From Candidatus Velthaea sp. (lineage in GTDB: Bacteria; Vulcanimicrobiota; Vulcanimicrobiia; Vulcanimicrobiales; Vulcanimicrobiaceae), in contig JBEKHC010000003.1 in NCBI GenBank assembly GCA_050012475.1, positions 32,001-96,000 of the forward strand: DNA of 64,000 bases. The letters run 5' to 3'. A program made the position numbers and the translations under genes. Each line of letters begins with the position of its first letter. Position 1 is the first letter of the stretch. Shown here piece by piece: positions 7,976 to 57,400 of this stretch. A model generated the notes under the pieces. It was given only the letters and a program-made list of their open reading frames with translations, had not been told where the DNA came from and did no database searches.

Positions 7976-8022
7976 ATCATAGCATTCGACTCGGGGTAAA
8001 CACACCGTGAAAACAATGGATC
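7976..8022 (-). promoter_or_regulatory. Island promoter copy 1: GATCCATTGTTTTCACG-N24-TATGAT
   Basis: Box 8006-8022, -10 at 7976-7981 preceded by TGn; points into the 7922 gene and the ABC exporter operon. Confidence 0.75.
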
Positions 8023-8226
8023 GTGGGGGCCCGGACTCGGCTCTGCATCCCGGCTGTTCGACCGTCCCGTGCGCCGAGCGGCTCATTGCGCGCACGTTCA
8101 AGGCTTCGAGCACGATCGTGCAATAACGGTCGACGATCGCTGGCGACCGCGCGCCGACCGCGACACCGTCGTCAGCTTCAACCAGAATGTTAGCCTGACG
8201 TCTCGTTCTGAGAAGCTCTGCAGGAT

Positions 8227-10155
8227 TTAGACCGAGATTCTGACGCCAAACTCGATCGTGCTCTCGACGGGGAGGCCGAGCGACTCGGTGAGCGGGGTAG
8301 CATTCCGCGCCATGAACGCGTAGACAAATCGCTGCCAACCCGGCATCGCGCTCCGCGCGAGGTCGCGAACGAGCCTTGGATGCGGCAAATAATACGCAGA
8401 TACGGCGTCAAGTCCGAGCGGCTTTTCTCCGCAGCAATCGATGATGTCATCGATCGAGGGCATCTGCATGTATCCGTAGCGCGCGACGATCCGCATGACG
8501 TCGCAAGCCACCTGTTCGAAGACGATCCGGTCTTCCCTGCGCACCGTGGGACGACGTTCGTGTGCGATCGTAATGATCACGATGTTGGCGTGGAGCACGT
8601 GCGTTGAAAGCCACGCGTGGTGTAAGACGAAGGGAATGCCTTCGCTATCCGTTGTGAGAAAAACCGCGGTTTCGGGACGTAGGCGCACGGCGCGACTCGA
8701 GTACTCCTCGCGTTCGTACACGTCGAGCGGTGCCGATAGCTTTGCGAACGCTGCGGCGACGCGTCGCCGTCCCGATTCCCACGTGACGAAAAGCGTGAAA
8801 ACGACGAAGGCGATCGACGCCGGCAGCCAGGCCCCATCCATAATCTTGACGATGTTGCCGGCCAAGAACGCGAGATCGACGCTGAGAAAGACCGCGCTGA
8901 GCCCGTATGCGGCGAGCGGTGGCCATTTGAAACGGGAACGCGCGACCTGACCAAAAGCGAACGATGTGGCAAGCATCGTAACGGTGACGGCGAGGCCATA
9001 CGCCGAACCCAGCCGCTCGCTGCTGCGGAAACCGAGGACGACCCCAATGCAAGCGCACGCCAGCATCGCGTTGACGGCTGGGATAAAGATTTGTCCCGCT
9101 CGTTCGGAGGACGTATGGAGCACCCGCAAACGCGGTAGATAGCCGAGTTGTACCGCTTCTTGCGTCATCGAGAAGGCGCCCGTGATGAGCGCCTGCGACG
9201 CGATGACGGTCGCGACCGTCGACAGCGCGACCATCGCAAGCGTCGTCCAACCGGGATAAAGCGCGAAAAATGACGACGACGAAAGCACGCGAGGGTCGTG
9301 CAGCGCGAGGGCTCCTTGGCCGAAGTAGTTGAGGAGCAACGCCGGGAAGCATGCCGCGTACCAAGCAAGGCGAATTGCCGAGCTGCCGAAATGCCCGAGA
9401 TCGGCGTAGAGCGCTTCGACGCCCGATACCGACAGCACGACGGCGCCCAAAACCAGAATGCTCGACGGACCGTTCCGCGCCATAAACTGGAACGCATGAC
9501 GCGGGTCGAGCGCGACAAGAACGTGCGCGTCATGGACGAGTGCGACAAGTCCGCCGGCCCCGATCGCGATGAACCAGAGCAGCATGATCGGGCCGAAGAC
9601 GCTTCCGATCTTCCCGGTGCCGCGCGCTTGCACGAAGAACAGTGCTCCCAGGATGGCAACCGTGGCCGGAACCACGACCGGGTGCAGGGCCCGCGTTGCG
9701 ACATCAAGTCCCTCGACGGCCGAGAGCACCGAGATCGCGGGGGTAATGATGCCGTCTCCGTACAGCATCGCGGCTCCGAGAAGGAGCGCAAACGCAAGCC
9801 ACGGCAGGCGCTTCGAGACGCTGCTGCGGGGGATCGGAGTCAACAGCAGCGCCAGCAGCGCGAGCGTGCCGCCTTCTCCTTCGTAGTCGGCCCGCAGCAC
9901 GAATGTCGCATACTTCACGCAAACGACGAGAATGAGCGCCCATACGATGAGCGACAGGATGCCGAGCACGTTCTCCGCGCGAGCGGCGTAACCGGGACCC
10001 GCGACAAAACATAGCCGAAACGCGTAGAGTGGACTCGTCCCGATATCGCCGAAGACGATACCCAGCGCCGCGAGCGACAGCATCGCGAGCGGCGTGACGC
10101 TTTGCCGTCGTTCGGACGACGGTATGAAGCTCGGCGCGGTCCGGATCGTTTCCAT
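8227..10155 (-). CDS. kup: KUP/HAK/KT family potassium transporter
   Basis: GIVFGDIGTSPLYA, GEGGTLAL, GDGIITPAISVLSAVEG, EALYADLGHFG. Confidence 0.95.
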   Translation of the reverse strand: METIRTAPSFIPSSERRQSVTPLAMLSLAALGIVFGDIGTSPLYAFRLCFVAGPGYAARAENVLGILSLIVWALILVVCVKYATFVLRADYEGEGGTLALLALLLTPIPRSSVSKRLPWLAFALLLGAAMLYGDGIITPAISVLSAVEGLDVATRALHPVVVPATVAILGALFFVQARGTGKIGSVFGPIMLLWFIAIGAGGLVALVHDAHVLVALDPRHAFQFMARNGPSSILVLGAVVLSVSGVEALYADLGHFGSSAIRLAWYAACFPALLLNYFGQGALALHDPRVLSSSSFFALYPGWTTLAMVALSTVATVIASQALITGAFSMTQEAVQLGYLPRLRVLHTSSERAGQIFIPAVNAMLACACIGVVLGFRSSERLGSAYGLAVTVTMLATSFAFGQVARSRFKWPPLAAYGLSAVFLSVDLAFLAGNIVKIMDGAWLPASIAFVVFTLFVTWESGRRRVAAAFAKLSAPLDVYEREEYSSRAVRLRPETAVFLTTDSEGIPFVLHHAWLSTHVLHANIVIITIAHERRPTVRREDRIVFEQVACDVMRIVARYGYMQMPSIDDIIDCCGEKPLGLDAVSAYYLPHPRLVRDLARSAMPGWQRFVYAFMARNATPLTESLGLPVESTIEFGVRISV

Positions 10156-10244
10156 TCAGCAGCTCGGCGACGCCAAAGGCGACGGCGGCTTGCGGCGAAG
10201 CCGCAAACGCGATGGATTCGTCGAGCGTAGCCGAGGCGAATCCA

Positions 10245-11978
10245 CTAACGCGGGATGATGCCCGGGATGAGATACTGCTCCACCGCGACGAGGATGCTGA
10301 GCAAGACCGTCAGCACGATGCTATGGACGAACGTCCGCGCGAACACGACGCCTTCTTTGCCTTTCAAGTCCGTGACCGAGACGCCGGTGGTAATGTTCTG
10401 CGGCGAGATCATCTTGCCCATGACGCCGCCTGATGCATTGGTGGCCGCGAAGAGGATCGGATTGAGTTGGAGCTGATTGGCCGCGACGACTTGCAAGTTA
10501 CCGAAGAGCGCATTCGCAGACGTGTCGCTGCCCGACAAAAAGCCCGCCACCCAGCCGAGGCTAACGGAAGCCAACGGGAACAGCACCCCCAGCGACGCGA
10601 CGCCTTTTCCGAGCGTGTACGCCATGCCCGAGTAGTTCATCAGGTAAGCGAGACCGATGATGAGCGCGACGGTGATCACCGCGAGCCAAACCTGTTCCAA
10701 CGTCTGCTTCACACAGCGAACGAATCCGCGCGCATCGACGCCGACCACTGCCGCGGTGACGACCGCGGCGAAGAGAATCGCCGTACCCGTTGCCAGTGGC
10801 TGGAAATCCCACACCGCGGCATAGGGCTGGCCGTAAAGCGTGATAAACACGGCGTCGTTGAGGCCCGGCCAGGGGATCTTGAGGTCGCCGATGCTGAAGA
10901 TTTTGAGATACGTCCAGACGATGACGACGCCGGAAACGAGGAGCCACGGTATCCAGCCTTGCCACTCGGCAACGTGCGGACCACCGCCTTGAACAACGGC
11001 AACCTCCACGGCAGGGGCTTTCATGGCGGCGATCTTGAGGTTGGCGACTTCGGGGCCCGGAGCGCTCACTGCGACGACTCTGGGGACCGGAACTTTTGCT
11101 GCGGGGCGCGGCTCGCCGAGATTGGCGTCCAGATCCGTGCGCATCGCGAACTTCGGATCGGGCGCCGGATGCCAGCGTCGCAGAAAAAGAACGGTGACGA
11201 TCAAGGAAGTCAGCGATGACAACACGTCGGCCAGCCGGTAGTCCGCAAAGTTGGAAACCGCGAATTGCGTGACGGCCATGCTGCCGCCGGCGACGAGCAG
11301 CACGGGCCACAGTGCGGCGAGGGACCGTCGGCCACCGAGAATCGCGATGACGTAGAACGGCACGACGAGTGCGACGATCGGCAGTTGCCGGCCGATCATT
11401 GCGCCCAGCGTGGCGTCGGGAAGGTGGGTTACCGCCGCGAGAACGGTCACGGGCACGCCGAGCGCGCCGAATGCAACCGGAGCCGTGTCCAGGATCAGCG
11501 TATAGGTCAAGGCCTCGAGCGGCGACCAGCCCACGAGAATGAGCAGCGAACTGCAGATCGCGATCGGGGTCCCGAAGCCGGCGATGCCCTCGAGCAGAGC
11601 GCCGAAGCAGAAACCGATGACGATCAGCACGACGCGCTTGTCATTGGGCAGATTGTGAAAGATCCAATCGCGAAAGGCATTGAAACGGCCGGAGATGACC
11701 GCGATATTGTAGAGCAGCAGGGCGCTGAAGACGATCCACATGACGGGCCAAAGCGCGAAGGTGACACCGTTGGCTGCGCTGCTCAGTGCGAGCTTGAACG
11801 GAAACCGCCACAACCAGACCGCGATGACGAACGCCGATATCAGCCCGACCAGCGAAGCCTGCCAGGCCGGCCGCCGCAGAACGCCCAGCATGATCAGCAC
11901 CACCACGATCGGGAGCACGGCGACGGCGAAGGAAAGGGCTAAGTTCCCCGAGATCGGCGTTAGCAATTGGTGAAACAC
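10245..11978 (-). CDS. lctP: L-lactate/glycolate permease (LctP family)
   Basis: FGALLEGIAGFGTP, DTAPVAFGALGVP, LSGSDTSANALFG, GKMISPQNI. Confidence 0.92.
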   Translation of the reverse strand: MFHQLLTPISGNLALSFAVAVLPIVVVLIMLGVLRRPAWQASLVGLISAFVIAVWLWRFPFKLALSSAANGVTFALWPVMWIVFSALLLYNIAVISGRFNAFRDWIFHNLPNDKRVVLIVIGFCFGALLEGIAGFGTPIAICSSLLILVGWSPLEALTYTLILDTAPVAFGALGVPVTVLAAVTHLPDATLGAMIGRQLPIVALVVPFYVIAILGGRRSLAALWPVLLVAGGSMAVTQFAVSNFADYRLADVLSSLTSLIVTVLFLRRWHPAPDPKFAMRTDLDANLGEPRPAAKVPVPRVVAVSAPGPEVANLKIAAMKAPAVEVAVVQGGGPHVAEWQGWIPWLLVSGVVIVWTYLKIFSIGDLKIPWPGLNDAVFITLYGQPYAAVWDFQPLATGTAILFAAVVTAAVVGVDARGFVRCVKQTLEQVWLAVITVALIIGLAYLMNYSGMAYTLGKGVASLGVLFPLASVSLGWVAGFLSGSDTSANALFGNLQVVAANQLQLNPILFAATNASGGVMGKMISPQNITTGVSVTDLKGKEGVVFARTFVHSIVLTVLLSILVAVEQYLIPGIIPR

Positions 11979-12058
11979 GAGGGGATCCTCCGTCGCGACA
12001 GCGCGAACAGGAAGCGGCGACGCGCCTCAGGCCGCAAGTTGGGCGTCGAAAATGACAT

Positions 12059-15013: not shown

Positions 15014-15243
15014 TATTGCTGCGAGTGTTCTTCGTCCCAGAAACTAGGGCTATCGAAAAAGAGGGCAGTTATTCGTCCTTCGCGGTCTTCCGCAAGGAAC
15101 GTCTGACGCAGGACACCGCAGTCGCCACGTTTCGAGCGTGCGCACCCGGCCCAGCCTGCACGCGACAAACCCGCGCATCCCTTTGCGAAGCGATCGTGTT
15201 CGCGCGTCCTTCCCAAAAAGCGGCGCGATTGAACTCATCGCCC

Positions 15244-15290
15244 AACATACACGCTTGGGAGCGGACCAGCCATAGCGAAACGGGGGATAG
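15244..15290 (-). promoter_or_regulatory. Island promoter copy 2 (variant): CTATCCCCCGTTTCGCT-N24-TATGTT
   Basis: Box 15274-15290, -10 at 15244-15249; points into the dehydrogenase-lctP-kup operon; near-inverted twin of copy 3. Confidence 0.6.
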
Positions 15291-15379
15291 CCAAAACGCG
15301 GAAGCAGCGCTTCGTTGGCGACGCCGCCCAGTCGCCCGCAAGACTGCAAGGTGGAGCGCGAGGGACGGAACCGAACGAA

Positions 15380-15426
15380 GTATCCCTCTTTTCACTATGG
15401 CTGCTGCCGACCCAGGCTAGTATGGT
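15380..15426 (+). promoter_or_regulatory. Island promoter copy 3 (variant): GTATCCCTCTTTTCACT-N24-TATGGT
   Basis: Box 15380-15396, -10 at 15421-15426; upstream of the ORF at 15474. Confidence 0.6.
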
Positions 15427-15473
15427 AGCCAGAGAACAGCGTGGCGTTCAGCCGGGAGGGACGAAGTTCGGAA

Positions 15474-15860
15474 ATGAAGCGCGTAAAGGTCCATACACGC
15501 CTGGAGATCGAGCGCGCGCTTCGGGAGCGTATGGTCCCGTGTACGGACAACCGTGAGGCCCTCGTTGAACTCGGGTTCATGCCGGCGTATCCGCACCTCG
15601 CGCACGATGTCTACTACGGCACTCTTTGGACGCGCGCAGTCGATGCGAACAACGATCCGGCCGTCCCGCCGCGCCCGAATGCGAAAATGCTCGTCGTGGA
15701 GCGAGCCGTTCACATTGCTGCAAAGCGCCGCACCCACCGCATCCGCTTACGACGCGCCGGACGTTGCCTGGCCGTCACGACGCGCAACCGCGCCTATTGC
15801 CCCTTACCTGCACGCCGCCTTGTCGGCCTCGTCGTTCGTGAGCGTGACCCCGGGCCGTGA
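15474..15860 (+). CDS. Hypothetical protein; C-terminal frame uncertain
   Basis: ATG after GGAGGG; directly downstream of promoter copy 3; N-terminal ~85 aa look protein-like, the Arg-rich tail may be out of frame. Confidence 0.45.
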   Translation: MKRVKVHTRLEIERALRERMVPCTDNREALVELGFMPAYPHLAHDVYYGTLWTRAVDANNDPAVPPRPNAKMLVVERAVHIAAKRRTHRIRLRRAGRCLAVTTRNRAYCPLPARRLVGLVVRERDPGP

Positions 15861-15870
15861 CGACGGCCTT

Positions 15871-16869
15871 TTAGGGTTCGAGCGCGAGGATGTGAATGCG
15901 GCCGAACGCGTCGCCCACGACGATCATCCGGTCATTCGCAAGGGTGCAGCACTGCGCGGACGCGGCGCAAAAGAATGTCGCGATCGTTGCGCCGCTCGCG
16001 AGTTCCCAGACTTTGACGGTTTGGTCCGCGGATGCGGAGACCACGCGCCGCCCGTCGGAGGTGAGCGCGACCGAAGAAACCGCGGCGGAGTGACCTTCGA
16101 GCGTCCGCAGCGCGCGGCCGCTTTCGAGGTCCCAGACCTTAACGGTCTGATCGGCGGAAGCGGAGACGGCGTGCCGTCCCTCCGGTGTAACCACGACGGC
16201 GTTGACGAGGCCCAGATGTCCGCGCAGCGTGCGCAGCTCGCGACCGCTTTCGAGTTCCCACACCTTGAGCGTCTCGTCATAGGAAGCGGAAACGGCACGC
16301 CAGCCGTCCGGCGTAACCGCGACGGCCCAGACCGACCGGGTGTGACCGCGAAGGGTCTGCACGATACGGCCGCTGTCGAGTTCCCACACCTTGAGCGTTT
16401 CGTCGGCCGAGGCCGAGATGGCGCGCCGGCCGTCAGGCGTGACGGCTACCGCCTTGACGACGTCGGCGTGGCCCGCAAACGTTCGCGTCTCCAGGCCGCT
16501 GTCGAGCTCCCATGCTTTGAGCGTGTAGTCCCACGATGCCGACACCGCGCTCTTTCCGTTCGGCGTTAGCGCGACGGCATCGACGGGGCGAGCATGTCCT
16601 TGGAGGGTCCGCAATTCCTGACCGCTTTCGATATCCCACAACTTGAGCGTGTGATCCCAAGAGGCGGAAACGGCGCGGCGGCCATCCGGCGTTACCGCCA
16701 CGGCATCAACCCGGCCGGCGTGACCTTGAAGAACTCGCGATCCGCGAGCATCGGCGGCGCGTCGATCGTCAGGGCCTGCATAAAACTCCGCCCCGTAGCC
16801 CGCCAGCGCCCGAAGCAAAGGAACGTTCCCCGGAATCCCCGGTGCAGCCCCGATCTCACTCATTTCCAT
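15871..16869 (-). CDS. Stand-alone WD40-repeat (beta-propeller) protein
   Basis: Six highly similar 42-aa repeats GH...AVAVTPDGRRAVSASxDxTLKVW plus a degenerate last blade; AAGGAG RBS. Confidence 0.92.
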   Translation of the reverse strand: MEMSEIGAAPGIPGNVPLLRALAGYGAEFYAGPDDRRAADARGSRVLQGHAGRVDAVAVTPDGRRAVSASWDHTLKLWDIESGQELRTLQGHARPVDAVALTPNGKSAVSASWDYTLKAWELDSGLETRTFAGHADVVKAVAVTPDGRRAISASADETLKVWELDSGRIVQTLRGHTRSVWAVAVTPDGWRAVSASYDETLKVWELESGRELRTLRGHLGLVNAVVVTPEGRHAVSASADQTVKVWDLESGRALRTLEGHSAAVSSVALTSDGRRVVSASADQTVKVWELASGATIATFFCAASAQCCTLANDRMIVVGDAFGRIHILALEP

Positions 16870-17240
16870 CGCTTCTCCTTTTTGCTGTGCGATAAACGCA
16901 ACGGCGCTGCTACGACACCTTCGCTAACATCAATGCGATCGGGGCTGCTCCGATTTAGCCCTGGACGTCGTCGCTACGCGGCTCATTTGCTGAAGCAAAC
17001 TTCGCCGCTGTGCTCCTCGCCAGGACGACTACTGTTCATGCGGCATTGTATGACAACGACAAATATATCACGATTGTACTCCAAACGTTATCCGCGCGCA
17101 GTTACTTTGATCCATCTCGGCGCGCCGGCAATCCGACGCGAGCACGAGCCGTTCTTTGGTCTACGCACGTTTCATCGTTGCGCCGCAGCGCGCGATAAGC
17201 ACACCGCTCAGAGCCCGTACCGCGATAAACCAGCTCGTAC

Positions 17241-17287
17241 ATTCCATGTTTTTCACGGTACCGCAGATGGCAAGCGTGCGCTAGAAT
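17241..17287 (+). promoter_or_regulatory. Island promoter copy 4: ATTCCATGTTTTTCACG-N24-TAGAAT
   Basis: Box 17241-17257, -10 at 17282-17287; upstream of the small hydrophilic protein at 17437. Confidence 0.75.
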
Positions 17288-17436
17288 AGGTATGCTCCGC
17301 TCAATCTCTCGGCTCGACCGATTCTTTGAAAGCGGACTTCGCTGACTCGTCGACTTCCAGCCCGCAATGGGCTCATTTCGAGCTATCAGCAGTGCCTATC
17401 GCGAAATTCACCGCGACCAACAAACAAAGGACATTC

Positions 17437-17679
17437 ATGGAAACAAAAAGCGAACTCACGAAAGTCATCGACAAGGTCACCGAGACCGCCGACAACGTCA
17501 AAGGCGCGGCGACCGAATTCGTTCATCGGGCAGCCGCGGAGGCCGAGCAGGAAAAGCGCATTCTGGCCGGAGACACCATGACGACCGATGCAAAGGCAAG
17601 CTCGATGCTCAACGAAGCAAAACAGACGGCGCAAGGCGACGTCGAAGCGATGAAGCGCACCGAGCGCAACAAGGCGTAA
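17437..17679 (+). CDS. Small hydrophilic helical protein (80 aa), LEA/general-stress-like
   Basis: AAGGA RBS; rich in A/E/K/T, no Cys or Trp; followed by a hairpin. Confidence 0.7.
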   Translation: METKSELTKVIDKVTETADNVKGAATEFVHRAAAEAEQEKRILAGDTMTTDAKASSMLNEAKQTAQGDVEAMKRTERNKA

Positions 17680-17685
17680 CTTTCC

Positions 17686-17725
17686 AGCAGTCGCAGAGGG
17701 CGCTCGAACGCTCTCTGCAACTGCT
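17686..17725. terminator. Long hairpin between convergent genes
   Basis: AGCAGTCGCAGAGGGCG-loop-CGCTCTCTGCAACTGCT imperfect inverted repeat. Confidence 0.55.
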
Positions 17726-17792
17726 CCGGCTTGGATTGACGACGGTTCACTCAGAAGTAGTTCCGGCGCGGTTCGAGATTTCGGCCGCATCG

Positions 17793-19037: not shown

Positions 19038-19041
19038 GCCG

Positions 19042-21381: not shown

Positions 21382-21465
21382 GGCGATGCCGCCTCACCGG
21401 CGGAACCGGCGGCAGTCAACAAGAGCCGCGCGCAGGCGCCGATCGTCGGTTGCATGATTGTTGCG

Positions 21466-21513
21466 ACTTTAGCACCCGGCGAACGTGACCGGCAATCGTG
21501 AAAATGGCGGATC
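21466..21513 (-). promoter_or_regulatory. Island promoter copy 5: GATCCGCCATTTTCACG-N25-TAAAGT
   Basis: Box 21497-21513, -10 at 21466-21471 preceded by TGn; points into ATPase A and ackA. Confidence 0.75.
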
Positions 21514-21551
21514 GGGGCGTTCGCATCAGTGCGCCGGCAACGGCCGAACGA

Positions 21552-21598
21552 GGTCCATGTATTTCACGATACCCTCTCGACCTGCGCTGCGCTACAAT
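21552..21598 (+). promoter_or_regulatory. Island promoter copy 6: GGTCCATGTATTTCACG-N24-TACAAT
   Basis: Box 21552-21568, -10 at 21593-21598; points into the SPFH...ATPase B-xfp operon. Confidence 0.78.
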
Positions 21599-21701
21599 TG
21601 CCGTGTCGCCGATCGACGGCCCCGTCCTCCGGCTGTTTCTCTCTCGCGCCCGTCGGACAGAAGTAGCCGAATCGTCGAGCGTTTGCGCCGAAGGGTTGTC
21701 C

Positions 21702-22987: not shown

Positions 22988-23048
22988 CATTCGCTCACCG
23001 CCGCGCGTCCCGGCTTCTCAAACACCAGCTCTTCGCAAGGAATTGACC

Positions 23049-24128: not shown

Positions 24129-24168
24129 AAGACGGCGTGCCGTGCCTCATGCATCACGGCGCGTCACG

Positions 24169-26667
<2,499 letters not shown>

Positions 26668-26717
26668 ACCTTGGCGCGTTCCCCGCACGCACTTACTCCA
26701 GAGAAAGAACGTTTACT

Positions 26718-29306: not shown

Positions 29307-29485
29307 AACGATCGTAAGCGGCGCTTCCGGGAGGAGCGCCGTCCAGGCCCTACGTTCGACATGTGCTACGGACATGCTACCTTCGAGCGGACACCCACAA
29401 GGGCACGTAGCCGCAAGCTTCCGAAGGAACGGAGCCGAGCAACGCGCGAACCGCGCTGCCCGCGAGACGCTCGGTCACGACGCTT

Positions 29486-29860
29486 TCAGCGTTCCGCGTT
29501 TACCTGACGAAGGCGGGCGTCAGCGAGCTTTACCGCGGAATCGAGACGCTCGAACTCCTCGCGCGCCCCGGCCGGACTCGTCGGTACGTTTCGATTGTCG
29601 ATCGAACAAACATTCGCCGTAATATCTTCTATGGGCGTTAGGTTTTTCATCGCTTGCCGGCGGCGCCTATTCGCATCCAGCCGGCGCATCTGTTTTTTCG
29701 AGACGAAGCTGAACTTCTTCGGTGCGGCGTAGATCACCGGCTGATCCGTCACATCGACGTGGTTTGGCGTCAGTTTCAGGCTACTTATGTGGCTGACCAT
29801 CGACTCGGCATCGTGGTCGTCATCTAGGCGCGGTGCAGTATGTACGGCGTCCGATGTCAT
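29486..29860 (-). CDS. Hypothetical protein (124 aa)
   Basis: ATG after GGAG, 13 nt downstream of the preceding stop; no recognisable motif. Confidence 0.5.
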   Translation of the reverse strand: MTSDAVHTAPRLDDDHDAESMVSHISSLKLTPNHVDVTDQPVIYAAPKKFSFVSKKQMRRLDANRRRRQAMKNLTPIEDITANVCSIDNRNVPTSPAGAREEFERLDSAVKLADARLRQVNAER

Positions 29861-29873
29861 CAGGTCATCTCCA

Positions 29874-30374
29874 TCAGCAAGAAAAGAGGTGGCGGTCTTT
29901 GCGGCCGGCAGTCGTTTCCGCCGACGCACGCTCGACGTGATCGGCGATCGACCGCAGGAAACCGCAGACGAAACCTCGAGCGACCCGCTTGCCGAGTCCC
30001 GCATCGAACACCGCCCCGGCGGCGCCGAAGGGCACCTGGTAGTGTCCAGACAGAACGAGGCTGAAACGATCGCGGAGCAACGTTCTTTCAACCGCTAACG
30101 CACCGGCGAACTCCGGAAACGCGCCGCCGTCGGCGGACGACAAAGCGATGGAATAGGTCGGGTGCGAATCGGCCGCCGACGAAAGCGAATAAAACGACGC
30201 GACCGCGCGCTGCTCCAGCGCCACTTTCCAGGCCGCGAACATCGTTATCGGCAAACGCAGCGCGATACTCAGCGAACCGTTCACGTCGCGGTGTTCGGCG
30301 ACGAACGCCGCCAGACGTTGCGCGGCTTCGTGCTGCGCGCAATGAACGACGAGCCGCTCGCAGATATCCGGCAT
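29874..30374 (-). CDS. Hypothetical protein, possibly SRPBCC/START-like; paralog of 7416-7922
   Basis: End-to-end similarity with 7416-7922; AAGGG RBS. Confidence 0.7.
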   Translation of the reverse strand: MPDICERLVVHCAQHEAAQRLAAFVAEHRDVNGSLSIALRLPITMFAAWKVALEQRAVASFYSLSSAADSHPTYSIALSSADGGAFPEFAGALAVERTLLRDRFSLVLSGHYQVPFGAAGAVFDAGLGKRVARGFVCGFLRSIADHVERASAETTAGRKDRHLFSC

Positions 30375-30498
30375 TGGAAGGCCCTTCGATCGACCGCGTG
30401 ACGGCAGCCGCAAACACGTTCGATGATGCCCGTCGGCGCGGAATGCGGCGTGATCGCCGGCGGACTCGTGCGGCAGGAGCTGATCGAACGACATGGTT

Positions 30499-30545
30499 AG
30501 GATATCATCCAGGCCGCGCCAACCGTATCGTGAAAACAGTGGATC
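30499..30545 (-). promoter_or_regulatory. Island promoter copy 7: GATCCACTGTTTTCACG-N24-TATCCT
   Basis: Box 30529-30545, -10 at 30499-30504 preceded by TGn; 16/17 identical to copy 1. Confidence 0.75.
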
Positions 30546-30585
30546 GCGGGGGCAACCGCCCTGGGGGTCTTGGTCGAGTCCGCGC

Positions 30586-31329
30586 TTAGGAGCCCCAGGC
30601 CGCGGCAGTGGGAACCGGGGTGAGGCGAGCGGCTACTGGGCGCCGACTTGCTGGAAGCGTGCGCAGCGCGAGCGCAGCGGCGTCGTCGCCGCCGCGCCGA
30701 GTCCGAAACACGCGGCGCGCGATCGCGCGGGCAGCATTGAGTTCAGGCAAGCCGTGCACGACTCGGACCGCTTCGACGAGGTCGGCTTCGCCGCGCACGG
30801 GATCCCGCTGATGCTCGGTTATCCCGTCCGTGTAGAACACCACGAGCGCATCCGCGGGAAGCGCGACCACGTAATCCGCGCCAAGATAGCTGGAGAAAAT
30901 TCCCAGCGGCAGGTCGGCTGGAGGCTGGTGCAAAAACGCGTGGCCGTCGGCAGTCAACACCAGCGGCGGCGGATGTCCGGCGTTTGCAAAAGCGAGCGTG
31001 CCGAAACGCCGGTCGAGAACGGCGACGATGGCGGTTGCGATCACGCCGTTGACGCAGGTGTAGGCAACGTCGTTGAGGACCGCCAGGACGTCCGACGGAA
31101 TGCGAATCTCGCCGATCGCTCGGAGCGCCGCCGCACGCATCACCGCCATCGCCTCGGCCACGCTTTCGCCGTGTCCCGAAACGTCGCCGATCGTCAATGC
31201 CATGACGTGTTCGGAGAGCGCGAAGGCCTCACACCAGTCTCCACCGCTTTGTGCGCCGCCTATGGGCGAATTCCAGGCCGTCAAGCTGGCATCGAAAGCG
31301 GCAATGCCGCGTTCGCCGTCAGCGATCAC
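30586..31329 (-). CDS. PP2C-family (SpoIIE/RsbU-like) Ser/Thr phosphatase without a sensor domain
   Basis: GGDW, IGDVSGHG, ANAGHPPP, FYTDGITE, DDAAAL; GTG start overlaps the stop of the REC gene. Confidence 0.88.
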   Translation of the reverse strand: MIADGERGIAAFDASLTAWNSPIGGAQSGGDWCEAFALSEHVMALTIGDVSGHGESVAEAMAVMRAAALRAIGEIRIPSDVLAVLNDVAYTCVNGVIATAIVAVLDRRFGTLAFANAGHPPPLVLTADGHAFLHQPPADLPLGIFSSYLGADYVVALPADALVVFYTDGITEHQRDPVRGEADLVEAVRVVHGLPELNAARAIARRVFRTRRGGDDAAALALRTLPASRRPVAARLTPVPTAAAWGS

Positions 31330-31718
31330 GCGGCGGCAAAACGCGGATCGGTGTAACAACCGCTATGCAGCGCACTGCGCACGCCGTGCGCCAGTGTGCG
31401 TTCGTCAGCGTCTTTCGAGAGGATACAGTTGACTCCGGCGAGGTGGCAAGCCACGCCCCAGGTGCTCTTCATGAGATCCGTATACACGGCGATCAGACAC
31501 TCGGGCAGCACGAACCGGATTTGGCGCAGCAGCTCGAGGGCATCGACCTTCGAGTGATCGACGTCGCAGATGAGCAAGTTGGGCGCCAGCCGGCCCAACT
31601 CGGTTACGTCGAGTCGAGCGATCACCGGGCCAGCGAGGACTCCTGCCATTTGCAAGGCAGAATCGAACACCGGAACCCTCGTACGGTCGATGCCGGCTAG
31701 GCAGCACACGTAAGCCAT
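31326..31718 (-). CDS. Stand-alone, Cys-rich receiver (REC) domain protein, NarL-like
   Basis: LLICD (phospho-Asp), VYT, AGVNCILSK, YTDP tail typical of NarL-type receivers; no output domain. Confidence 0.75.
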   Translation of the reverse strand: MAYVCCLAGIDRTRVPVFDSALQMAGVLAGPVIARLDVTELGRLAPNLLICDVDHSKVDALELLRQIRFVLPECLIAVYTDLMKSTWGVACHLAGVNCILSKDADERTLAHGVRSALHSGCYTDPRFAAA

Positions 31719-31994
31719 ACGGAAAACGCTTTCAGGAGTGAACGGGCGCGAAACCGAGATCGCGGAAAATACTAGAGCGCGGGGGACCAGTTATCCGGTC
31801 GCTGCGCGTCGAACGCTCGATAACTGTACCATCTCGAACGAGGCGAACACATCGTTAAAAAGGCCGATGAGAGGGCGAATCCGAGCAAACGCGCCCACCC
31901 TGCCGATAGCGCGGCCGGCTCTCCGCTTCCGCTGCATGCCTCGCTGTCGAAATCCGACCCCGCGTACCCGATCGTTTCGGGTATTCTGAGCGTT

Positions 31995-32924
31995 GTGCCG
32001 GCCTCGCAGTGGACCTTTGCGCGCGTGCAGCCCAACGGCGATCTCGACGCGCTTTTCGGTTCGCACGGCAACGGCAAGGCACGCGCCGTCCTCACCGACG
32101 AGCTCAAACGTCAACGGCTCAAGGCTCCGATTGGGCCCCGGATCGCCGCGACGCTCGGACCGTTGGACGCCTTCGCGAGCGGCATCACGCTCCTTTTCGC
32201 CGACGCCCGCTCCAATTTCGGGATCCTTACGCTGCTGCGGACCACGGAATTGGGACCGTTCACCGCCAGCGAGATCAGCATGCTGACGTTCGCCCTCGAC
32301 GCCCTGTCGGATCGCCTCTCCGCGCTGCGCCTGCAGCCGGAAGCAAAGGAAAATGGCTTTCTGCCCCATCGTGCGGAGACCCGGATGAGTCCGGAGCCGC
32401 CCGAGGGAGCGTTCTACGTCCTCGACAGCGACCTGCAGATCGTCTTGGCCTGGAGCGCGGAAGACGAACGCCGGATCGCCTTGACCGGACTGCACACGCG
32501 CATCGCCGAGCGTCTCCCCGTCGTGCTCGAACAGACCGTGCGCGAATTGACCTCGGCTTGGTCCGGCGACGCGCTCAAAGCCCGCAGCGCCGCGCGCGCG
32601 GCCTCGTTCCTCGTCGTCCGTACCCAACCGATGTCCGGTCCGGCCGGGCTCTTCATCGGGGTCCGGATCGATCGCTTCCAGCCGCCGAACTCGCTCACCG
32701 GCGCGGCTTCCCGCTTCCACATCTCACCCCGCGAAGTGCAGGTTCTCGCGCTGCTGCTCGACGGCAAGCACCTCGATCAGATCGCCGAGCAGCTGCACAT
32801 CACGTCGTCAACCGTTCAAGATCACATCAAGAGCATGCTCGACAAAACCGGCAGCGGGAACCGCAGCGAACTCATCGCGCGCGTGCTGGGCTGGGAGTCG
32901 CCGCCGCGAGCCGAACAGGCGTAG
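31995..32924 (+). CDS. LuxR-type HTH transcriptional regulator with unassigned N-terminal sensor region; start may lie upstream
   Basis: C-terminal ISPREVQVLALLLDG...IAEQLHITSSTVQDHIKSMLDKTG..NRSEL. Confidence 0.88.
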   Translation: MPASQWTFARVQPNGDLDALFGSHGNGKARAVLTDELKRQRLKAPIGPRIAATLGPLDAFASGITLLFADARSNFGILTLLRTTELGPFTASEISMLTFALDALSDRLSALRLQPEAKENGFLPHRAETRMSPEPPEGAFYVLDSDLQIVLAWSAEDERRIALTGLHTRIAERLPVVLEQTVRELTSAWSGDALKARSAARAASFLVVRTQPMSGPAGLFIGVRIDRFQPPNSLTGAASRFHISPREVQVLALLLDGKHLDQIAEQLHITSSTVQDHIKSMLDKTGSGNRSELIARVLGWESPPRAEQA

Positions 32925-32949
32925 CGTTTCGGCAACGCCGAAGCCGCCG

Positions 32950-32996
32950 GTCCCCCGGATTTCACGATACCAGTCGGCTCTCGGCTGCGCTATAGT
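32950..32996 (+). promoter_or_regulatory. Island promoter copy 8: GTCCCCCGGATTTCACG-N24-TATAGT
   Basis: Box 32950-32966 followed by ATAC, -10 at 32991-32996; points into aspT-aspD. Confidence 0.75.
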
Positions 32997-33081
32997 ACGA
33001 CGGGACTCGCAGGACGTTTGTTCTTGCGCCAGTCGCGCCTGACGTCGCCCGTCGACGACGGCGATGTCCGGGAATTCTACA

Positions 33082-34791
33082 ATGACGATCCTTCATCAGC
33101 TCCTCAAGGGCGAGCCGCTGCTCGCGCTATTTGCCACGATCGCGCTCGGCTATCTCGCCGGGAAAATCAAAATCGGCAGCTTCGTCTTGGGCGGTATTGC
33201 CGGAACGCTCCTCGTCGGTGTGATCGTCGGCCAGCTGGACGTGCAGTTGGACGGCGGCATCAAGACGATCTTTTTTGCGCTGTTCATCTACGCCGTCGGT
33301 TACCAGGGCGGCCCGCAGTTTTTCCACGCCCTCAATCGGCGTTCGCTCAACCAGCTCGCGTCGGCATTCGTCATGTGTTTGACCGGTCTGCTGTGCGTGT
33401 TGATCGCGGCTTGGATGTTCGGCCTCGATCGCGGAATGGCAGCCGGATTGGCCGCCGGCGGCTTGACCCAATCGGCGATCATCGGCACCGCCGGCGACGC
33501 GATCGCCCGCTTGGGACTGTCACCGGCTGCGATAAAAGCCATGCAGACCAACGTCGCCGTCGGTTACGCCGTGTGCTACATCTTCGGCTCGCTGGGACCG
33601 ATCCTCATGGTCACGTGGTTTTTCCCCGCGATCATGAAATGGAACATTCGCCAAGAAGCGGTGAAGTTGGCGAAGCAACTGTCCGGCGGCCGAGCCGAAC
33701 TCGACCCCGGTCAATTCAATGCCGTGCGCGACATCGACACCCGCTTCTATGAAATCGCGCCGGCCAGCAAGGCCGTCGGCCAGACGGCGCTCGCGATCGA
33801 CAAGCTGCTTTCGGACGCCGCGGTCGAGGCCATCTTCCGCAACGGCGCCGCGGTCGAATTCACCGGCAGCACGGTCGTTCAGGCGCGGGACAGCGTCGCG
33901 GTCACCGGAACGATCCGCGTCATGGAAACGGCTTCGGACTTTTTCGGTCACGAGGTGATTGCTCCGAACAATCCCACGCTCGTTCAAGAGAGCCGCGAAC
34001 TCATTTTGACCAACCGCGGGCTGAGCGGCCGGACCATCGACGACGTCCACGCGAACGTCAGCGTCGAGACGCGGCACGGCGTTTTCCTGACGGCGATCCG
34101 ACGGATGGGACGCGATCTGCCGCTGCTGGGGAACCTGAAGTTGCAAAGCGGCGACGAACTGCACTTGACGGGCAGTCCGGGCGATCTCGATCGCGTGCAA
34201 ACCAAGATCGGGTACAAAATATCGGCGTCGGCGGTCACCGACTTCGTCTTCTTCGGCATCGGCATCGTGACGGGAATGCTGCTGGGTTTGATTCAATTCA
34301 AACTTTGGGGTGTTCCGATCACCATCGGCAGCGGTGCGGGGTGCTTGCTCTCCGGCTTATTTTTCGGCTGGCTGCGCAGCGTCCATCCAAGATTCGCCGC
34401 GCTTCCGCTGGGCGCGTCGACGTTTTTGCGCGATTTCGGGTTGGCCGTTTTCGTCGGCACGGTCGGCATCGCCGCGGGACCGCCGGCCCTCGTCGCCATC
34501 CAGCACTCCGGCTTGACGCTTTTGTTTCTCGGTGTCGCCGTTACGCTGATCCCTCAAATCGTTACGTTCTTCTTCTCCTACTACGTACTGCGCATCAAAA
34601 ATCCGATCGAAGCGCTGGCCTGCGTGGCCGGCGGCCGCAGCGCGAATCCGGCGTTCGCCGCTTTACTATCGAAGACCGGAAACGCAACGCCCGTCGCCGC
34701 GTTCACGGTCACCTATGCCGTCGCGAATGTTTTTCTCACCCTCTGGGGTCCCGTGATCGTCGGTATCATCGCCAAGAACGCGACCCATTGA
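33082..34791 (+). CDS. aspT: Aspartate:alanine antiporter
   Basis: FALFIYAVGYQGGPQFF, AGGLTQSAIIGTA, TrkA-C-like middle region, YAVANVFLTLWGP; adjacent to aspD. Confidence 0.93.
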   Translation: MTILHQLLKGEPLLALFATIALGYLAGKIKIGSFVLGGIAGTLLVGVIVGQLDVQLDGGIKTIFFALFIYAVGYQGGPQFFHALNRRSLNQLASAFVMCLTGLLCVLIAAWMFGLDRGMAAGLAAGGLTQSAIIGTAGDAIARLGLSPAAIKAMQTNVAVGYAVCYIFGSLGPILMVTWFFPAIMKWNIRQEAVKLAKQLSGGRAELDPGQFNAVRDIDTRFYEIAPASKAVGQTALAIDKLLSDAAVEAIFRNGAAVEFTGSTVVQARDSVAVTGTIRVMETASDFFGHEVIAPNNPTLVQESRELILTNRGLSGRTIDDVHANVSVETRHGVFLTAIRRMGRDLPLLGNLKLQSGDELHLTGSPGDLDRVQTKIGYKISASAVTDFVFFGIGIVTGMLLGLIQFKLWGVPITIGSGAGCLLSGLFFGWLRSVHPRFAALPLGASTFLRDFGLAVFVGTVGIAAGPPALVAIQHSGLTLLFLGVAVTLIPQIVTFFFSYYVLRIKNPIEALACVAGGRSANPAFAALLSKTGNATPVAAFTVTYAVANVFLTLWGPVIVGIIAKNATH

Positions 34792-34812
34792 TCCACGCAT
34801 CGGAGCACCATC

Positions 34813-36447
34813 ATGCCTTCTACCGACTATAGCGACCTCGAAGACCTGAGCCCATTCGAGCTCAAAGACCGGCTCATCGAGATCGCCTCGTCCGACTCCG
34901 CGCGGCTGATGCTCAATGCGGGCAGAGGGAATCCCAATTTCGTCGCAACGCTGCCGCGGTGGGCGTACCTGAGCGTTGGTGAGTTCGCACTGCTGGAGTC
35001 CGAACGGTCGTATTCGCATCTGAAGGTCGGCTTGGGCGGGCTGCCCGAGCGGGCCGGACTCATGCAGCGCTTCGAGACGTACGTGGCCGCTCACCCGCGT
35101 GCAGCGGGTGTCATCTTCTTGCGCGAGGCGCTGGCCTTGATCAAGGACCGTCTCGGGCTCAACGAAGAAGACCTGCTGCTGGAGTTCGTCGCTGCGTTCC
35201 TGGGCTGCAACTACCCGACGCCGCCGCGAATGCTGCCGATCACGGAAACGATCGTCAAGGCATATCTCGCTCAGGAGCTCTTTGGGAGCGTTCGGGTCCG
35301 CTCGGATTTTTCGCTCTTCGCGACCGAAGGCGGGACGGCGGCGATGACCTATATCTTTCAAAGCTTACACGCGAACGAGCTCATCGATCCAGGCGACAAG
35401 ATCGCGATCGTCACGCCGATTTTTTCACCATATTTGGAAATCCCCGTGCTCGACGAATACAGCCTGGACGTGGTGGACATTCGGATGGATGAAAACGACG
35501 ACTGGCAGCTTCCGGATGCCGAGATCGACAAGCTCCTTGACCCGAAGATCAAAGTGCTGTGTCTGGTAAACCCGAGTAATCCCCCGTCGACCAAACTCAC
35601 CGACGCCGTATTGGACAAGATCGCGACGCTCGTCAACACCCAACGCCCCGACCTGCTCATCGTTACCGACGTCGTCTACGCGACCTTTGCCGACGACTTC
35701 GTTTCGCTGTTCGCAAAGTGCCCGTACAACACGCTGTGCGTCTACTCGTTCTCCAAGTACTTCGGGGCCACCGGATGGCGCCTTGGCGCAATCGGCCTGC
35801 ACGACCGCAACGTCTTCGACTCCGCGCTCGCAGCGCTGGCCGAGGGCCGCAAGGCATTGCTCGATACCCGCTATTCGTCGTTGACGACCCAGCCGCGGAA
35901 GCTGAGTTTCCTCGACCGTTTGGTTGCCGACAGTCGTGCGGTGGCGCTCAACCATACCGCCGGTCTGAGCCTGCCGCAACAGCTGCAGATGGCATTGTTT
36001 GCCCTGCACGGCCTGCTGGATCGCGAAGACCGCTACAAGAATGCGGCGAAGGAGCTCATCCGCGAACGGTATCAGACGCTCTACGCCAACATGGGAGTCG
36101 AAGCAGTCCGTACGCCCAGCGATGTCGACTACTATTCCTTGATCGATCTGCAGACCATCGGCGCATCTCTCTATGGCCCCCAGTTCGAGGCCTGGTTCAC
36201 CAAAAATGACCTGGGAACGAGTTACCTCTTCCGCCTCGCCAAAGAAACTGGCGTCGTGCTTCTGCCCGGGAGCGGCTTCGAGGTCGTCGACACGTCGGCG
36301 CGGATTTCGCTGGCCAATTTGACCGACAGCGAGTACGCTTCGATCGGCCGATTCACGCGCCAAGTTCTCGATGAATACTACGTTGACTTCAAGAAAACGT
36401 TGGCGGCGACGAACGGATCAGCCGCGCATGCCGGTGCCAGCCGATGA
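34813..36447 (+). CDS. aspD: Aspartate 4-decarboxylase (PLP-dependent)
   Basis: LSPFELKD, LNAGRGNPNF, TEGGTAAM, VNPSNPP, YSFSKYFGATGWRLG, ALNHTAGLS. Confidence 0.95.
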   Translation: MPSTDYSDLEDLSPFELKDRLIEIASSDSARLMLNAGRGNPNFVATLPRWAYLSVGEFALLESERSYSHLKVGLGGLPERAGLMQRFETYVAAHPRAAGVIFLREALALIKDRLGLNEEDLLLEFVAAFLGCNYPTPPRMLPITETIVKAYLAQELFGSVRVRSDFSLFATEGGTAAMTYIFQSLHANELIDPGDKIAIVTPIFSPYLEIPVLDEYSLDVVDIRMDENDDWQLPDAEIDKLLDPKIKVLCLVNPSNPPSTKLTDAVLDKIATLVNTQRPDLLIVTDVVYATFADDFVSLFAKCPYNTLCVYSFSKYFGATGWRLGAIGLHDRNVFDSALAALAEGRKALLDTRYSSLTTQPRKLSFLDRLVADSRAVALNHTAGLSLPQQLQMALFALHGLLDREDRYKNAAKELIRERYQTLYANMGVEAVRTPSDVDYYSLIDLQTIGASLYGPQFEAWFTKNDLGTSYLFRLAKETGVVLLPGSGFEVVDTSARISLANLTDSEYASIGRFTRQVLDEYYVDFKKTLAATNGSAAHAGASR

Positions 36448-36800
36448 TTGATGCACCCGCGGCACCTCCGCAGCTGATACGAACCGCCACCGGCGCGACC
36501 TTTCGACGCTTGATTCTCGAAGGCGCCGGGCCAATCGTGGTCGAGTTCATGGCGTACGGCTGCGCGCATTGCCGCGCGCTCGAGCCGGTGCTCAAGCAGG
36601 TGACCCGAATGCTCGGTTCGGCAGAGCAGGTGTTCCGAGTGAACGTCGCCGTCGACGAGGAACTGGCGAACAGCTACGAGATCGGTGCAACCCCGACGCT
36701 GCTTATGTTTTTGGACGCAAAGGAAGTGGGGCGACTCGAAGGGCCGCGCCCTGTGGTAGCCAGCCTCCTAAGTGCGGTCGTAACACCATTCTCTTCATGA
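36444..36800 (+). CDS. Thioredoxin-family protein
   Basis: VVEFMAYGCAHC (CxxC), cis-Pro motif ATPTL. Confidence 0.85.
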   Translation: MIDAPAAPPQLIRTATGATFRRLILEGAGPIVVEFMAYGCAHCRALEPVLKQVTRMLGSAEQVFRVNVAVDEELANSYEIGATPTLLMFLDAKEVGRLEGPRPVVASLLSAVVTPFSS

Positions 36801-37390
36801 ACTGCGACAGGGCCCCGAGCCACCCGACCAAACCGGTCCTGCTGTATAACGGCGAATGCGCGGTCTGCCGTCACATCGCGCAGTGGGTACTTCAATCGGC
36901 GCGCAGCGCATCGGGCGATCCGAGCATCGTCGAACGGCCGATCGGCGACGACCCGGAGGCGCTCGCGTTGCTCAACCCGGACCTCGATATCTGGGATGCA
37001 TATGCGACCGTCCATCTTCTCATGCCCGATGGATCGATAAAAACCGGCGGCGAGGCCGTGGCCGAAGTTCTGCGGCGTGTCCCCGGCGCGCGATGGTTCA
37101 GCTGGACGTTCGCGGCCGGCATTGGCGGCTTCAGACCTTTTCAGCTGCTGCTCGATGCGTGCTACGCCGCACTCGCAGCGGTTCGCCCGCTGCTGGGATG
37201 CGAGAGCTGCGGTTCGACGAACGTCTGGGTGCGATCGATCGCCCGAACAATCGCCTGGGGAAAAGCTCCGTTCGCGAAGAGCAGCGCGCCGCATCGGGTG
37301 CGACATTTCGCCGCCGCGACCGCACGCCGGTCGAGACCGGCCGAACCCAAGTGGCCCACGGCCGCGACTCCCCGAAATTCACGATGGTGA
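36797..37390 (+). CDS. DCC/DUF393-family thiol-disulfide oxidoreductase
   Basis: LLYNGECAVC, HLLMPDG..TGGEA; ATGA overlap with the thioredoxin gene. Confidence 0.78.
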   Translation: MNCDRAPSHPTKPVLLYNGECAVCRHIAQWVLQSARSASGDPSIVERPIGDDPEALALLNPDLDIWDAYATVHLLMPDGSIKTGGEAVAEVLRRVPGARWFSWTFAAGIGGFRPFQLLLDACYAALAAVRPLLGCESCGSTNVWVRSIARTIAWGKAPFAKSSAPHRVRHFAAATARRSRPAEPKWPTAATPRNSRW

Positions 37391-37413
37391 ATCACGCACC
37401 GATGCGCTAAGCT
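37367..37413 (+). promoter_or_regulatory. Island promoter copy 9: ACTCCCCGAAATTCACG-N24-TAAGCT
   Basis: Box 37367-37383, -10 at 37408-37413; points into rpoZ-SDR-ohyA. Confidence 0.68.
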
Positions 37414-37459: not shown

Positions 37460-37678
37460 ATGAGTGACTCAGTATTCGGTGATCTCGACGGGCTTTTGGA
37501 GCACGCCGATTCGAAATTCACCCTCGTCAACGTCGTGACCAAGCGCGCCAAGCAGCTCAACAACGGGGCTCCGCCGCTGTGCGACAACGCGAACCCCAAC
37601 AAGCCCGTTTCGACGGCGTTCAACGAAGTACGGCTAGGGAAAATCAAATACAAGCGGACCCGCGAAGGGATCAAATAG
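37460..37678 (+). CDS. rpoZ: RNA polymerase omega subunit, outside its usual gene context
   Basis: LLEHADSKFTLVNVVTKRAKQL...KPVSTAFNEVRLGKI is the omega signature. Confidence 0.88.
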   Translation: MSDSVFGDLDGLLEHADSKFTLVNVVTKRAKQLNNGAPPLCDNANPNKPVSTAFNEVRLGKIKYKRTREGIK

Positions 37679-46647: not shown

Positions 46648-46660
46648 TACCGAGTTGTCC

Positions 46661-46912: not shown

Positions 46913-46914
46913 GC

Positions 46915-49829: not shown

Positions 49830-49835
49830 TTCCGT

Positions 49836-50717: not shown

Positions 50718-50731
50718 GCCGGGCGCACCTT

Positions 50732-52470: not shown

Positions 52471-52480
52471 GGTGTGCTGC

Positions 52481-54013: not shown

Positions 54014-54014
54014 C

Positions 54015-57380: not shown

Positions 57381-57400
57381 AATCATCGCGCGGCCGAAGC

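Follow-up and report, generated by a model that had tools for sequence, protein, structure and literature searches.

A position-fixed promoter box and a candidate GAF-PAS-LuxR activator in Candidatus Velthaea

The luxR and luxI genes lie divergently, and the DosR regulon is an example of a clustered regulon. The lux box is a 20-bp inverted repeat centered at −42.5 (accessible text of PMC3376562). EvgA of Escherichia coli activates acid-resistance genes from inverted repeats and binds inverted repeats at yfdX and yfdW (accessible text of PMC3720670); the accessible part of PMC12839154 adds nothing on the EvgA motif. The low-oxygen lxa locus of Burkholderia cenocepacia carries the motif TGA-N6-TCA, for which FNR/Anr-type regulators are candidates (accessible text of PMC3721108). 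We analyzed a 64,000-nucleotide stretch of DNA from Candidatus Velthaea sp. (contig JBEKHC010000003.1, positions 32,001–96,000; hereafter, the window), for which an original prediction had proposed that a box of about 17 bp stands at a fixed distance from the −10 hexamer of nine transcription units. The box proved to be a real promoter element that occupies a fixed position, −52 to −35, in about 27 promoters; its distribution points to a LuxR-type protein encoded in the window as a candidate for the protein that binds it.

All nine boxes were present at the coordinates and on the strands first assigned to them, each followed by RT, and so were their TAnnnT hexamers, at a gap of 24 nt for eight boxes and of 25 nt for the box at 21497. 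A same-strand gene lies ahead of every box in the window, as had been claimed, and we confirmed that the 45–64 kb region contains no copy. The number of copies needed correction, in that a tenth (Box 10 in Table 1) had been overlooked. The extent of the element also changed, the informative stretch running from −52 to about −34 rather than over about 17 bp, and the box at 37367, one of a set described as almost all intergenic, lies within the last codons of a DCC1-like open reading frame (ORF) at 36569–37390.

A pattern with the gap fixed matched the window eight times, compared with 0.04 matches expected from 100 dinucleotide shuffles (largest count, 1), but this pattern had been fitted to the same sites. 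We also scanned the genome with a matrix free of −10 information, derived solely from the nine box sequences. Outside the window it gave 30 matches of at least 18 bits, and in 13 of these a TAnnnT hexamer stood exactly 24 nt after the G of the box; one had a 25-nt gap, and every other distance occurred at most once. The spacing peak anticipated in the original prediction is thus found in held-out sites of the genome, although it weakens in the lower bins (2 of 58 matches at 15–18 bits and 3 of 278 at 12–15 bits). A strict composite pattern matched the genome 16 times and its reversed control not once. In a composite scan, 31 of the 33 sites of at least 18 bits were intergenic, compared with a coding fraction of 79% by crude gene calls, as were all 27 sites of at least 22 bits (nine in the window and 18 outside it, on contigs C1, C3, C16, C32, C78, and C160). 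Because most of these entries were training sites, we use the list as a catalogue and not as a test. The weakest copy, at 15274 on the minus strand, scored 14.6 bits despite being a training site and fell below the 18-bit composite cut-off. With 18 of the 27 strong sites beyond the window, the description of the regulon as island-wide was an understatement; the assembly is fragmented, and some of the box-bearing contigs could belong to one island.

To number the sites from predicted transcription starts, we set the T of TAnnnT at −12. We assembled 119 distinct sites from the window genome and from fetched loci of other genomes, leaving out two AT-rich loci, one locus from outside the phylum, and seven loci with doubtful matches. 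Their consensus is WTCSnYSWWTTTCACGAT at −52 to −35, and the gap to the −10 element is 24 nt in 107 sites and 25 nt in 12. The box is an imperfect 18-bp dyad (WTCS-N4-WTTTCA-CGAT) whose best center is at −43.5; the pairs −52/−35, −51/−36, and −50/−37 are complementary in 55, 76, and 92% of the sites, whereas the inner pairs are not. When sites were selected by the box only (62 sites), T-12, A-11, and T-7 were recovered at 77–79% and G-14 at 69%, and the spacer and flanks carried almost no information. A TTGACA-like −35 element is present in only 9 of the 119 sites. The combination of a good −10 element with a poor −35 element is the layout of activator-dependent promoters that are read by the housekeeping sigma factor, and the position of the dyad, in an element that abuts the −35 region, bears out the class II-like activator geometry proposed at the outset.

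The original prediction had also offered an unusual holoenzyme as an alternative to an activator. In this form of the explanation, TTCACG would be a displaced −35 element, read across a 24-nt spacer by an alternative sigma factor or a modified holoenzyme to which the product of the extra omega gene could belong: TTCACG agrees with TTGACA at four of six positions, and a second rpoZ gene lies behind one of the boxes. However, upstream regions in general show a peak of TTGAC-N17/18-TAnnnT (28 and 20 occurrences, compared with 0–4 at other spacings), and because such ordinary promoters are common in the genome, no unusual holoenzyme is needed. The motif also reaches 10 bp further upstream and has dyad ends. 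The second omega protein closely matches the other copy (C19:26757–26975; Table 1), and it is absent from all five relatives searched, which have one copy each and four of which carry strict boxes. No recurring sigma gene was seen beside the boxes in the loci read, although no genome-wide sigma profile was made. We consider a displaced −35 element very unlikely. A long-spacer form of the housekeeping sigma factor was rejected on the ground that housekeeping promoters peak at 17–18 nt. The copies might instead be remnants of a single duplicated or mobile promoter cassette, with no selected regulon behind them, and a subset of sites does have extra bases in common (ACCG after the box and TGCG before the −10 element). 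This explanation is disfavored because the spacers are not conserved; the flanks are also nearly free of information, the targets differ, and the element has been kept across many genera, and we find it hardly credible.

The check for conservation in related genomes showed that the box recurs across the family (Vulcanimicrobiota/Eremiobacterota). Of 401 genomes of the phylum, 37 contain the strict pattern; for the family the figure is 31 of 296, and the reversed control gave no match there. A stricter pattern, applied to 185,579 GTDB genomes, gave 14 loci, 13 of which are titled Vulcanimicrobiota or Eremiobacterota; the other, from Phycisphaerales, lies inside a reading frame. Among the genomes tallied, two box-positive ones (G273 and G361) and six negatives (G257, G372, G332, G227, G022, and G392) are flagged as unpublished, and one of the 14 loci may likewise stem from an unpublished genome; no conclusion rests on any of these. 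We discarded a one-mismatch pattern applied to the 401 genomes, for which matches in coding sequence dominated and the noise was too great for per-genome counts, and matches in AT-rich families of the phylum, which looked like chance. In one relative (G002, locus L023), two near-identical box-promoter units stand in tandem at 9848 and 9961, 113 nt apart. Back-to-back pairs of boxes serve divergent genes at 21495–21570 and 15272–15398 of the window, and similar pairs occur on contigs C16, C78, and C160 and at loci L031 and L036.

We think it likely that the box is bound by a dimer of the GAF-PAS-LuxR protein encoded at 31854–32924; the dimer would bring ordinary sigma-70-type RNA polymerase to promoters with a good −10 and a poor −35 element. 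This LuxR protein had been put forward for a pull-down experiment in the original prediction, and its linkage to the box, both across genomes and within loci, makes it the best candidate. Its helix-turn-helix (HTH) domain scores above the cut-off of PF00196 and matches the GerE fold (Z 11.0, root mean square deviation [rmsd] 2.2, 63 residues aligned); no NCBIfam family reaches its cut-off for the protein. In a predicted model based on 73 sequences (predicted local distance difference test, pLDDT, 82; predicted template modeling score, pTM, 0.71), the GAF domain has a best match of Z 11.6 (rmsd 3.0, 125 residues aligned), and the PAS-like middle matches VqmA (Z 9.9, rmsd 8.2 over residues 152–318). 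Foldseek matches of the PAS-like part include the PAS domains of FixL and PpsR, and the GAF domain of DosS was also matched by fold. Despite the matches to DosS and FixL, the conserved His or Cys ligands of a heme or Fe-S oxygen sensor (DosS, FixL, FNR) were not found: no column of residues 1–250 has His or Cys in more than 31 of the 73 sequences (43%). Of 8000 candidates scored, 704 were homologues of the regulator, for which the sole naming was "CsgD family regulator." Beyond the phylum, the best match in a plasmid search was 28% over 79%, and look-alikes in the Atlas came from Actinomycetota and Pseudomonadota.

Within the family, the regulator (E at most 1e-50) is present in 28 of the 31 genomes with a strict box but in only 77 of the other 265; when G273 and G361 are left out, the four cells of the regulator-by-box table are 27, 2, 77, and 188. 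Among the exceptions, the gene of G284 is broken at contig ends, and the match in G251 lies inside an ORF. At 24 loci of other genomes chosen by the box, the regulator was a neighbor in 10 and its receiver partner in eight; a CRP-like gene was found in two and an OmpR-type gene in none, and we rejected both as recurring partners. For a sample chosen by protein, 40 loci were fetched, hand-picked down a ranking of 150 listed matches. A box of at least 12 bits lies upstream, on the opposite strand, in 36 of 45 homologues with at least 44% identity (a set that includes the window, its paralogue, and 11 box-chosen rows) and in 25 of 32 when protein-chosen loci of other genomes are taken alone. It is upstream of none of the seven homologues below 40% identity, and the background is 1.7% of 3307 genes. 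In 33 protein-chosen loci we counted 37 box matches in 227 kb (22 at 24 nt and 5 at 25 nt from the −10 element), compared with a genome-wide density of 1.9 matches per 100 kb. A second box frequently follows the stop codon of the regulator, as it does at 32951.

Among 51 aligned loci, one of them the window, the recognition helix reads STVQDH, or a variant of one or two residues, in 44, STAHDH in six, and STVNDH in one. Most of the seven distant paralogues differ both in this helix and in their palindrome. At five of the seven loci with distant paralogues we found the palindrome TCCCYA-N4-TGRGGG, which occurs at no other locus examined. A complete NarL-type regulator stands opposite six of these seven paralogues, an arrangement that suggests loss of the NarL-type gene from the box-bearing module. 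In the distant module of L078 and L080–L083, the GAF-PAS-LuxR gene stands opposite genes for a NarL-type regulator and a receiver, with this palindrome as its own motif, and in some of these loci a GGGAGT..ACTCCC repeat was seen by eye; the module may have a second undescribed operator. By eye, too, three loci of the 44–48% clade (L039, L040, and L076) seem to have two opposed box-like sites in intergenic DNA, with an atypical −10 element. The window genome has a second copy of the regulator (G000:C19:2374–3500, locus L053; 69%). A box lies on the start of this copy, but TAnnnT does not follow at 24 nt, and a receiver gene is missing; the neighbors include an SDR protein like that at 37739 of the window and an 80-aa protein like that at 17437.

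Several points count against the assignment. The evidence for the binder is all association, and a regulator that is itself regulated would show the same upstream box. As many as 77 family genomes hold the regulator without a strict box, 7 of the 32 protein-chosen loci lack a box over 12 bits, and the Fisher P of the genome co-occurrence is overstated because related genomes are not independent. The change of motif with the recognition helix is confounded, because the binder of the palindrome could be the full NarL-type regulator encoded opposite six of the seven distant paralogues. The dyad is weak (mostly three or four of nine pairs), which is unusual for a homodimer. Direct oxygen sensing is unsupported because the sensor domains have no conserved His or Cys, and the window copy of the regulator may be poorly translated because its putative start codon (below) is GTT.

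Alternatively, two different proteins could recognize the asymmetric site as a heterodimer, the GAF-PAS-LuxR protein pairing with a NarL-type response regulator whose gene lies elsewhere, much as RcsB does with auxiliary LuxR-type proteins. This would fit a box whose CACGAT half hardly varies while its WTCS half is weak, as well as the position of the distant paralogues opposite a NarL-type regulator, to which six NarL-type proteins of the genome are 47–56% identical. However, in none of the box-bearing loci examined are the regulator and receiver genes separated by a NarL-type gene, and the autoregulatory copies of the box have symmetric ends (ATCG..CGAT). We regard a heterodimer as unlikely.

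In agreement with the original prediction that the box is neither an FNR/FixK nor a CRP site, TTGAT-N4-ATCAA and TGTGA-N6-TCACA were each found at 0 of the 119 sites. The lxa motif was also found at none of them. We likewise rejected the CreB cre tag (TTCAC-N6-TTCAC) and the Rex operator (TTGTGAA-N4-TTCACAA) as identities for the box, each with 0 of 119 sites. An unlinked master regulator of the CRP/FNR, OmpR, or AraC type might still bind the box and have the LuxR-type and receiver genes as conserved targets. A box also precedes genes for an OmpR-type regulator and a kinase on C32, the targets are reminiscent of FNR-type regulons, lxa among them (accessible text of PMC3721108), and some, not all, regulator families were profiled against the box. 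Apart from the absence of CRP, FNR, cre, and Rex patterns, this proposal has to accommodate a strict box in just 3 of the 191 family genomes that have no LuxR-type protein and a motif that changes together with the recognition helix, and it strikes us as improbable.

In 25 of the 36 homologues with an upstream box, the reading frame of the regulator can be followed back to the CAC of that box across 84–228 nt of variable DNA, which is free of stop codons in 23. The putative start codon inside the box is GTG in 22 of the 25 and GTT in three, the window genome being among the latter. Public gene calls start at the box (MKKADR in P0009 and P0042), and the first in-frame ATG, GTG, or TTG of the window regulator is at 31995. 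We infer that the window regulator starts at the GTT inside Box 10. A TA[CG]CAY hexamer on the regulator strand, 22–27 nt before the start codon, has its TA in common with the −10 element of the receiver gene, and the overlapping pair in the window (Table 1) is a predicted bidirectional promoter. The regulator bound at Box 10 would activate the divergent receiver gene and block its own transcript; this negative autoregulation is proposed from the predicted place of the bound protein, about +12 to +30 of that transcript.

Among solved structures, the receiver protein matched the EvgA receiver at E 2e-11 and the next family at 1e-5. In 30 sequences, D52 is present in 29, T or S80 in 30, and K102 in 26; the acidic pocket is incomplete, with strand 1 followed by a single acidic residue (position 11, which is D or E in 21 of 30), and C91, H92, and C121 are invariant (30 of 30). 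A PP2C-type gene lies behind the receiver gene here and in several relatives, and the two proteins could plausibly exert feedback on the regulator. A bolder reading, conceivable but in our judgment doubtful, is that acid and low-oxygen survival in Eremiobacterota runs through a lineage-specific "split response regulator," in which the cysteine-rich, EvgA-like receiver, encoded on the other strand, would dock in trans on the activator. The operator of the activator would then encode the activator's own first residues, and the receiver would be a redox- or phosphate-controlled brake or co-activator. If true, this system would replace FNR/FixK/DosR in an acidophile phylum, with regulons of one to about 27 sites.

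The features of the window are listed in Table 1. We infer from gene content that the box genes are co-regulated. Window targets that score above a model's cut-off are a proton-efflux ATPase (TIGR01647), an aspartate-alanine antiporter, and an aspartate 4-decarboxylase. Outside the window, the genes behind boxes or within their operons encode PRC-barrel, MaoC-Pta, and BON proteins, a MacAB-type exporter, a glycosyltransferase, a phasin, a lactate-racemase domain, PntAB, an enolase-superfamily enzyme, PPK2, a P-type ATPase, pyruvate kinase, serine dehydratase, alanine racemase, an amino-acid permease, a PALP enzyme, alanine dehydrogenase, and the OmpR-type regulator and kinase; an MscS gene lies within the C16 cluster. 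Reading of sequences by eye in relatives added proteins like universal stress proteins (USPs), glucose-6-phosphate dehydrogenase, and cytochrome oxidase subunits. Going by these predicted functions, the target set combines proton export and consumption with substrate-level ATP formation. The trigger is probably acid or energy stress at low oxygen, because the targets include the proton-efflux ATPase, the aspartate decarboxylase and antiporter, Kup, MscS, phosphoketolase, and acetate kinase, as well as Pta, PntAB, PPK2, BON, and USP proteins.

Table 1. Boxes and associated features of the window (positions within the 64,000-nucleotide stretch)
Feature	Position	Strand	Description
Box 1	8004..8021	-	-10 TATGAT 7976-7981; before hypothetical gene, HlyD, ABC ATPase, two ABC-2 permeases
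Box 2 (weakest)	15272..15289	-	-10 TATGTT 15244-15249; before FAD/Fe-S dehydrogenase, lactate permease, Kup
Box 3	15381..15398	+	-10 TATGGT 15421-15426; before hypothetical ORF 15531-15860
Box 4	17242..17259	+	-10 TAGAAT 17282-17287; before 80-aa protein 17437-17679, without Pfam family
Box 5 (25-nt gap)	21495..21512	-	-10 TAAAGT 21466-21471; before P-type ATPase (nearest model, proton efflux), acetate kinase
Box 6	21553..21570	+	-10 TACAAT 21593-21598; genes: band 7, hypothetical, GH130, proton-efflux P-type ATPase, phosphoketolase
Box 7	30527..30544	-	-10 TATCCT 30499-30504; before hypothetical ORF 29874-30494
SpoIIE/PP2C-type phosphatase domain gene	30586..31359	-	immediately after receiver gene
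Stand-alone receiver-domain protein, 130 aa	31326..31718	-	nearest solved relative, EvgA receiver
Overlapping -10 pair, one TA in common	31823..31832	.	TACAGT (minus, receiver gene), TACCAT (plus, LuxR-type gene)
Box 10	31851..31868	-	ATCG-N10-CGAT variant; directed at receiver gene, covers putative start of opposite-strand LuxR-type gene
Candidate activator, GAF-PAS-LuxR-HTH	31854..32924	+	GAF-like 2-133, PAS-like 152-245, LuxR/GerE HTH 250-318
Box 8	32951..32968	+	-10 TATAGT 32991-32996; directly after stop of LuxR-type gene; genes: aspartate-alanine antiporter, aspartate 4-decarboxylase, thioredoxin, DCC1-like gene
Box 9	37368..37385	+	-10 TAAGCT 37408-37413; before second rpoZ, SDR reductase, two-frame MCRA/oleate hydratase
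Second RNA polymerase omega gene (rpoZ)	37460..37678	+	67/72 residues identical to C19 copy

Two hypothetical ORFs, 7416–7922 and 29874–30494, look alike by eye, belong to no Pfam family, and each lie directly behind a box; the transcript of the second could be leaderless because its ATG, at 30494, lies at the predicted start. A WD40-repeat protein (15871–16869) lies inside the cluster without a box of its own. The gene for MCRA/oleate hydratase (38533–40100) is in two frames, split near 39090–39168. Because RNA contigs from three runs differ from the window by one base there, the split may come from an assembly error or be particular to the strain. In four metatranscriptome runs of one study, contigs at least 99% alike cover target genes, the receiver gene, and the regulator. 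Some of these contigs end at 30479, 30480, and 30486 (predicted start, 30492) and, twice, at 31808 (predicted start, 31816), which we do not count as evidence because they are contigs only, from a single study. Further along, 42088–43632 encodes a secreted-looking protein with weak Het-C/VWA7_N similarity, and the box-free, core-genome-like region 44963–63194 contains a chemotaxis cluster and then a sigma-70 gene (regions 2 and 4) by genes for a SpoU methylase, cysS, and serine acetyltransferase.

The phylum is widespread in soil and peat but almost uncultured, and for its acid and fermentation survival the analysis supplies a list of targets, a defined operator, and the regulator predicted to be cognate to it. 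The box flags hypothetical genes as stress genes and makes metatranscriptomes readable for the response, and because the promoters carry ordinary −10 elements, two genes and a reporter would be enough to test binding and activation in a laboratory host. We found no published description of the box, the regulator, or any regulon of the phylum in the literature covered, the scope of which excluded most subscription journals, RegPrecise, and PRODORIC.

In comparison with known systems, the box resembles the lux box of Vibrio fischeri LuxR in that a dyad near −43 abuts the −35 region and a LuxR-type HTH follows a GAF-fold sensor; TraR, QscR, SdiA, and RhlR are among the fold matches of the regulator, which, like luxR, is divergent from its first target. 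The box differs from the lux box in being a weak 18-bp dyad of another sequence, in the extra PAS-like domain of its regulator, and in a site that covers the regulator's own start codon, and the divergent gene encodes a receiver domain and not an autoinducer synthase. Nor did we find signs of a quorum-sensing pair: Pfam gives only GerE-type HTH families and no autoinducer-binding family, and no autoinducer synthase is among the annotated neighbors in the window, although no genome search for luxI was made. The PAS and LuxR-HTH part matches the one-component regulators VqmA and EL222 (PAS/LOV-LuxR) by fold, and the GAF-PAS tandem matches DhaR(N), but identities are 10–20% and the regulator has a three-domain GAF-PAS-HTH layout. 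Upstream of frc, yfdX, and safA, the 18-bp palindromes, which we take to be EvgA sites, mostly have TC..GA ends in common with the box. As an EvgA site, the box was rejected: the core TACA-NN-TGTA occurs in 0 of 100 distinct boxes, and with the box matrix the E. coli sites have negative scores. Unlike EvgA, the system has its receiver and HTH on separate proteins and no EvgS-like kinase adjacent. With lxa it has in common a clustered regulon with many copies of one motif and targets such as USPs, phospholipid-binding proteins, a cation ATPase, an ABC transporter, and an amino-acid decarboxylase (accessible text of PMC3721108). The motif, the module of a GAF-PAS-LuxR protein with a stand-alone receiver, and the operator on the start codon appear to be undescribed; the activation principle and the class of mechanism are already known.

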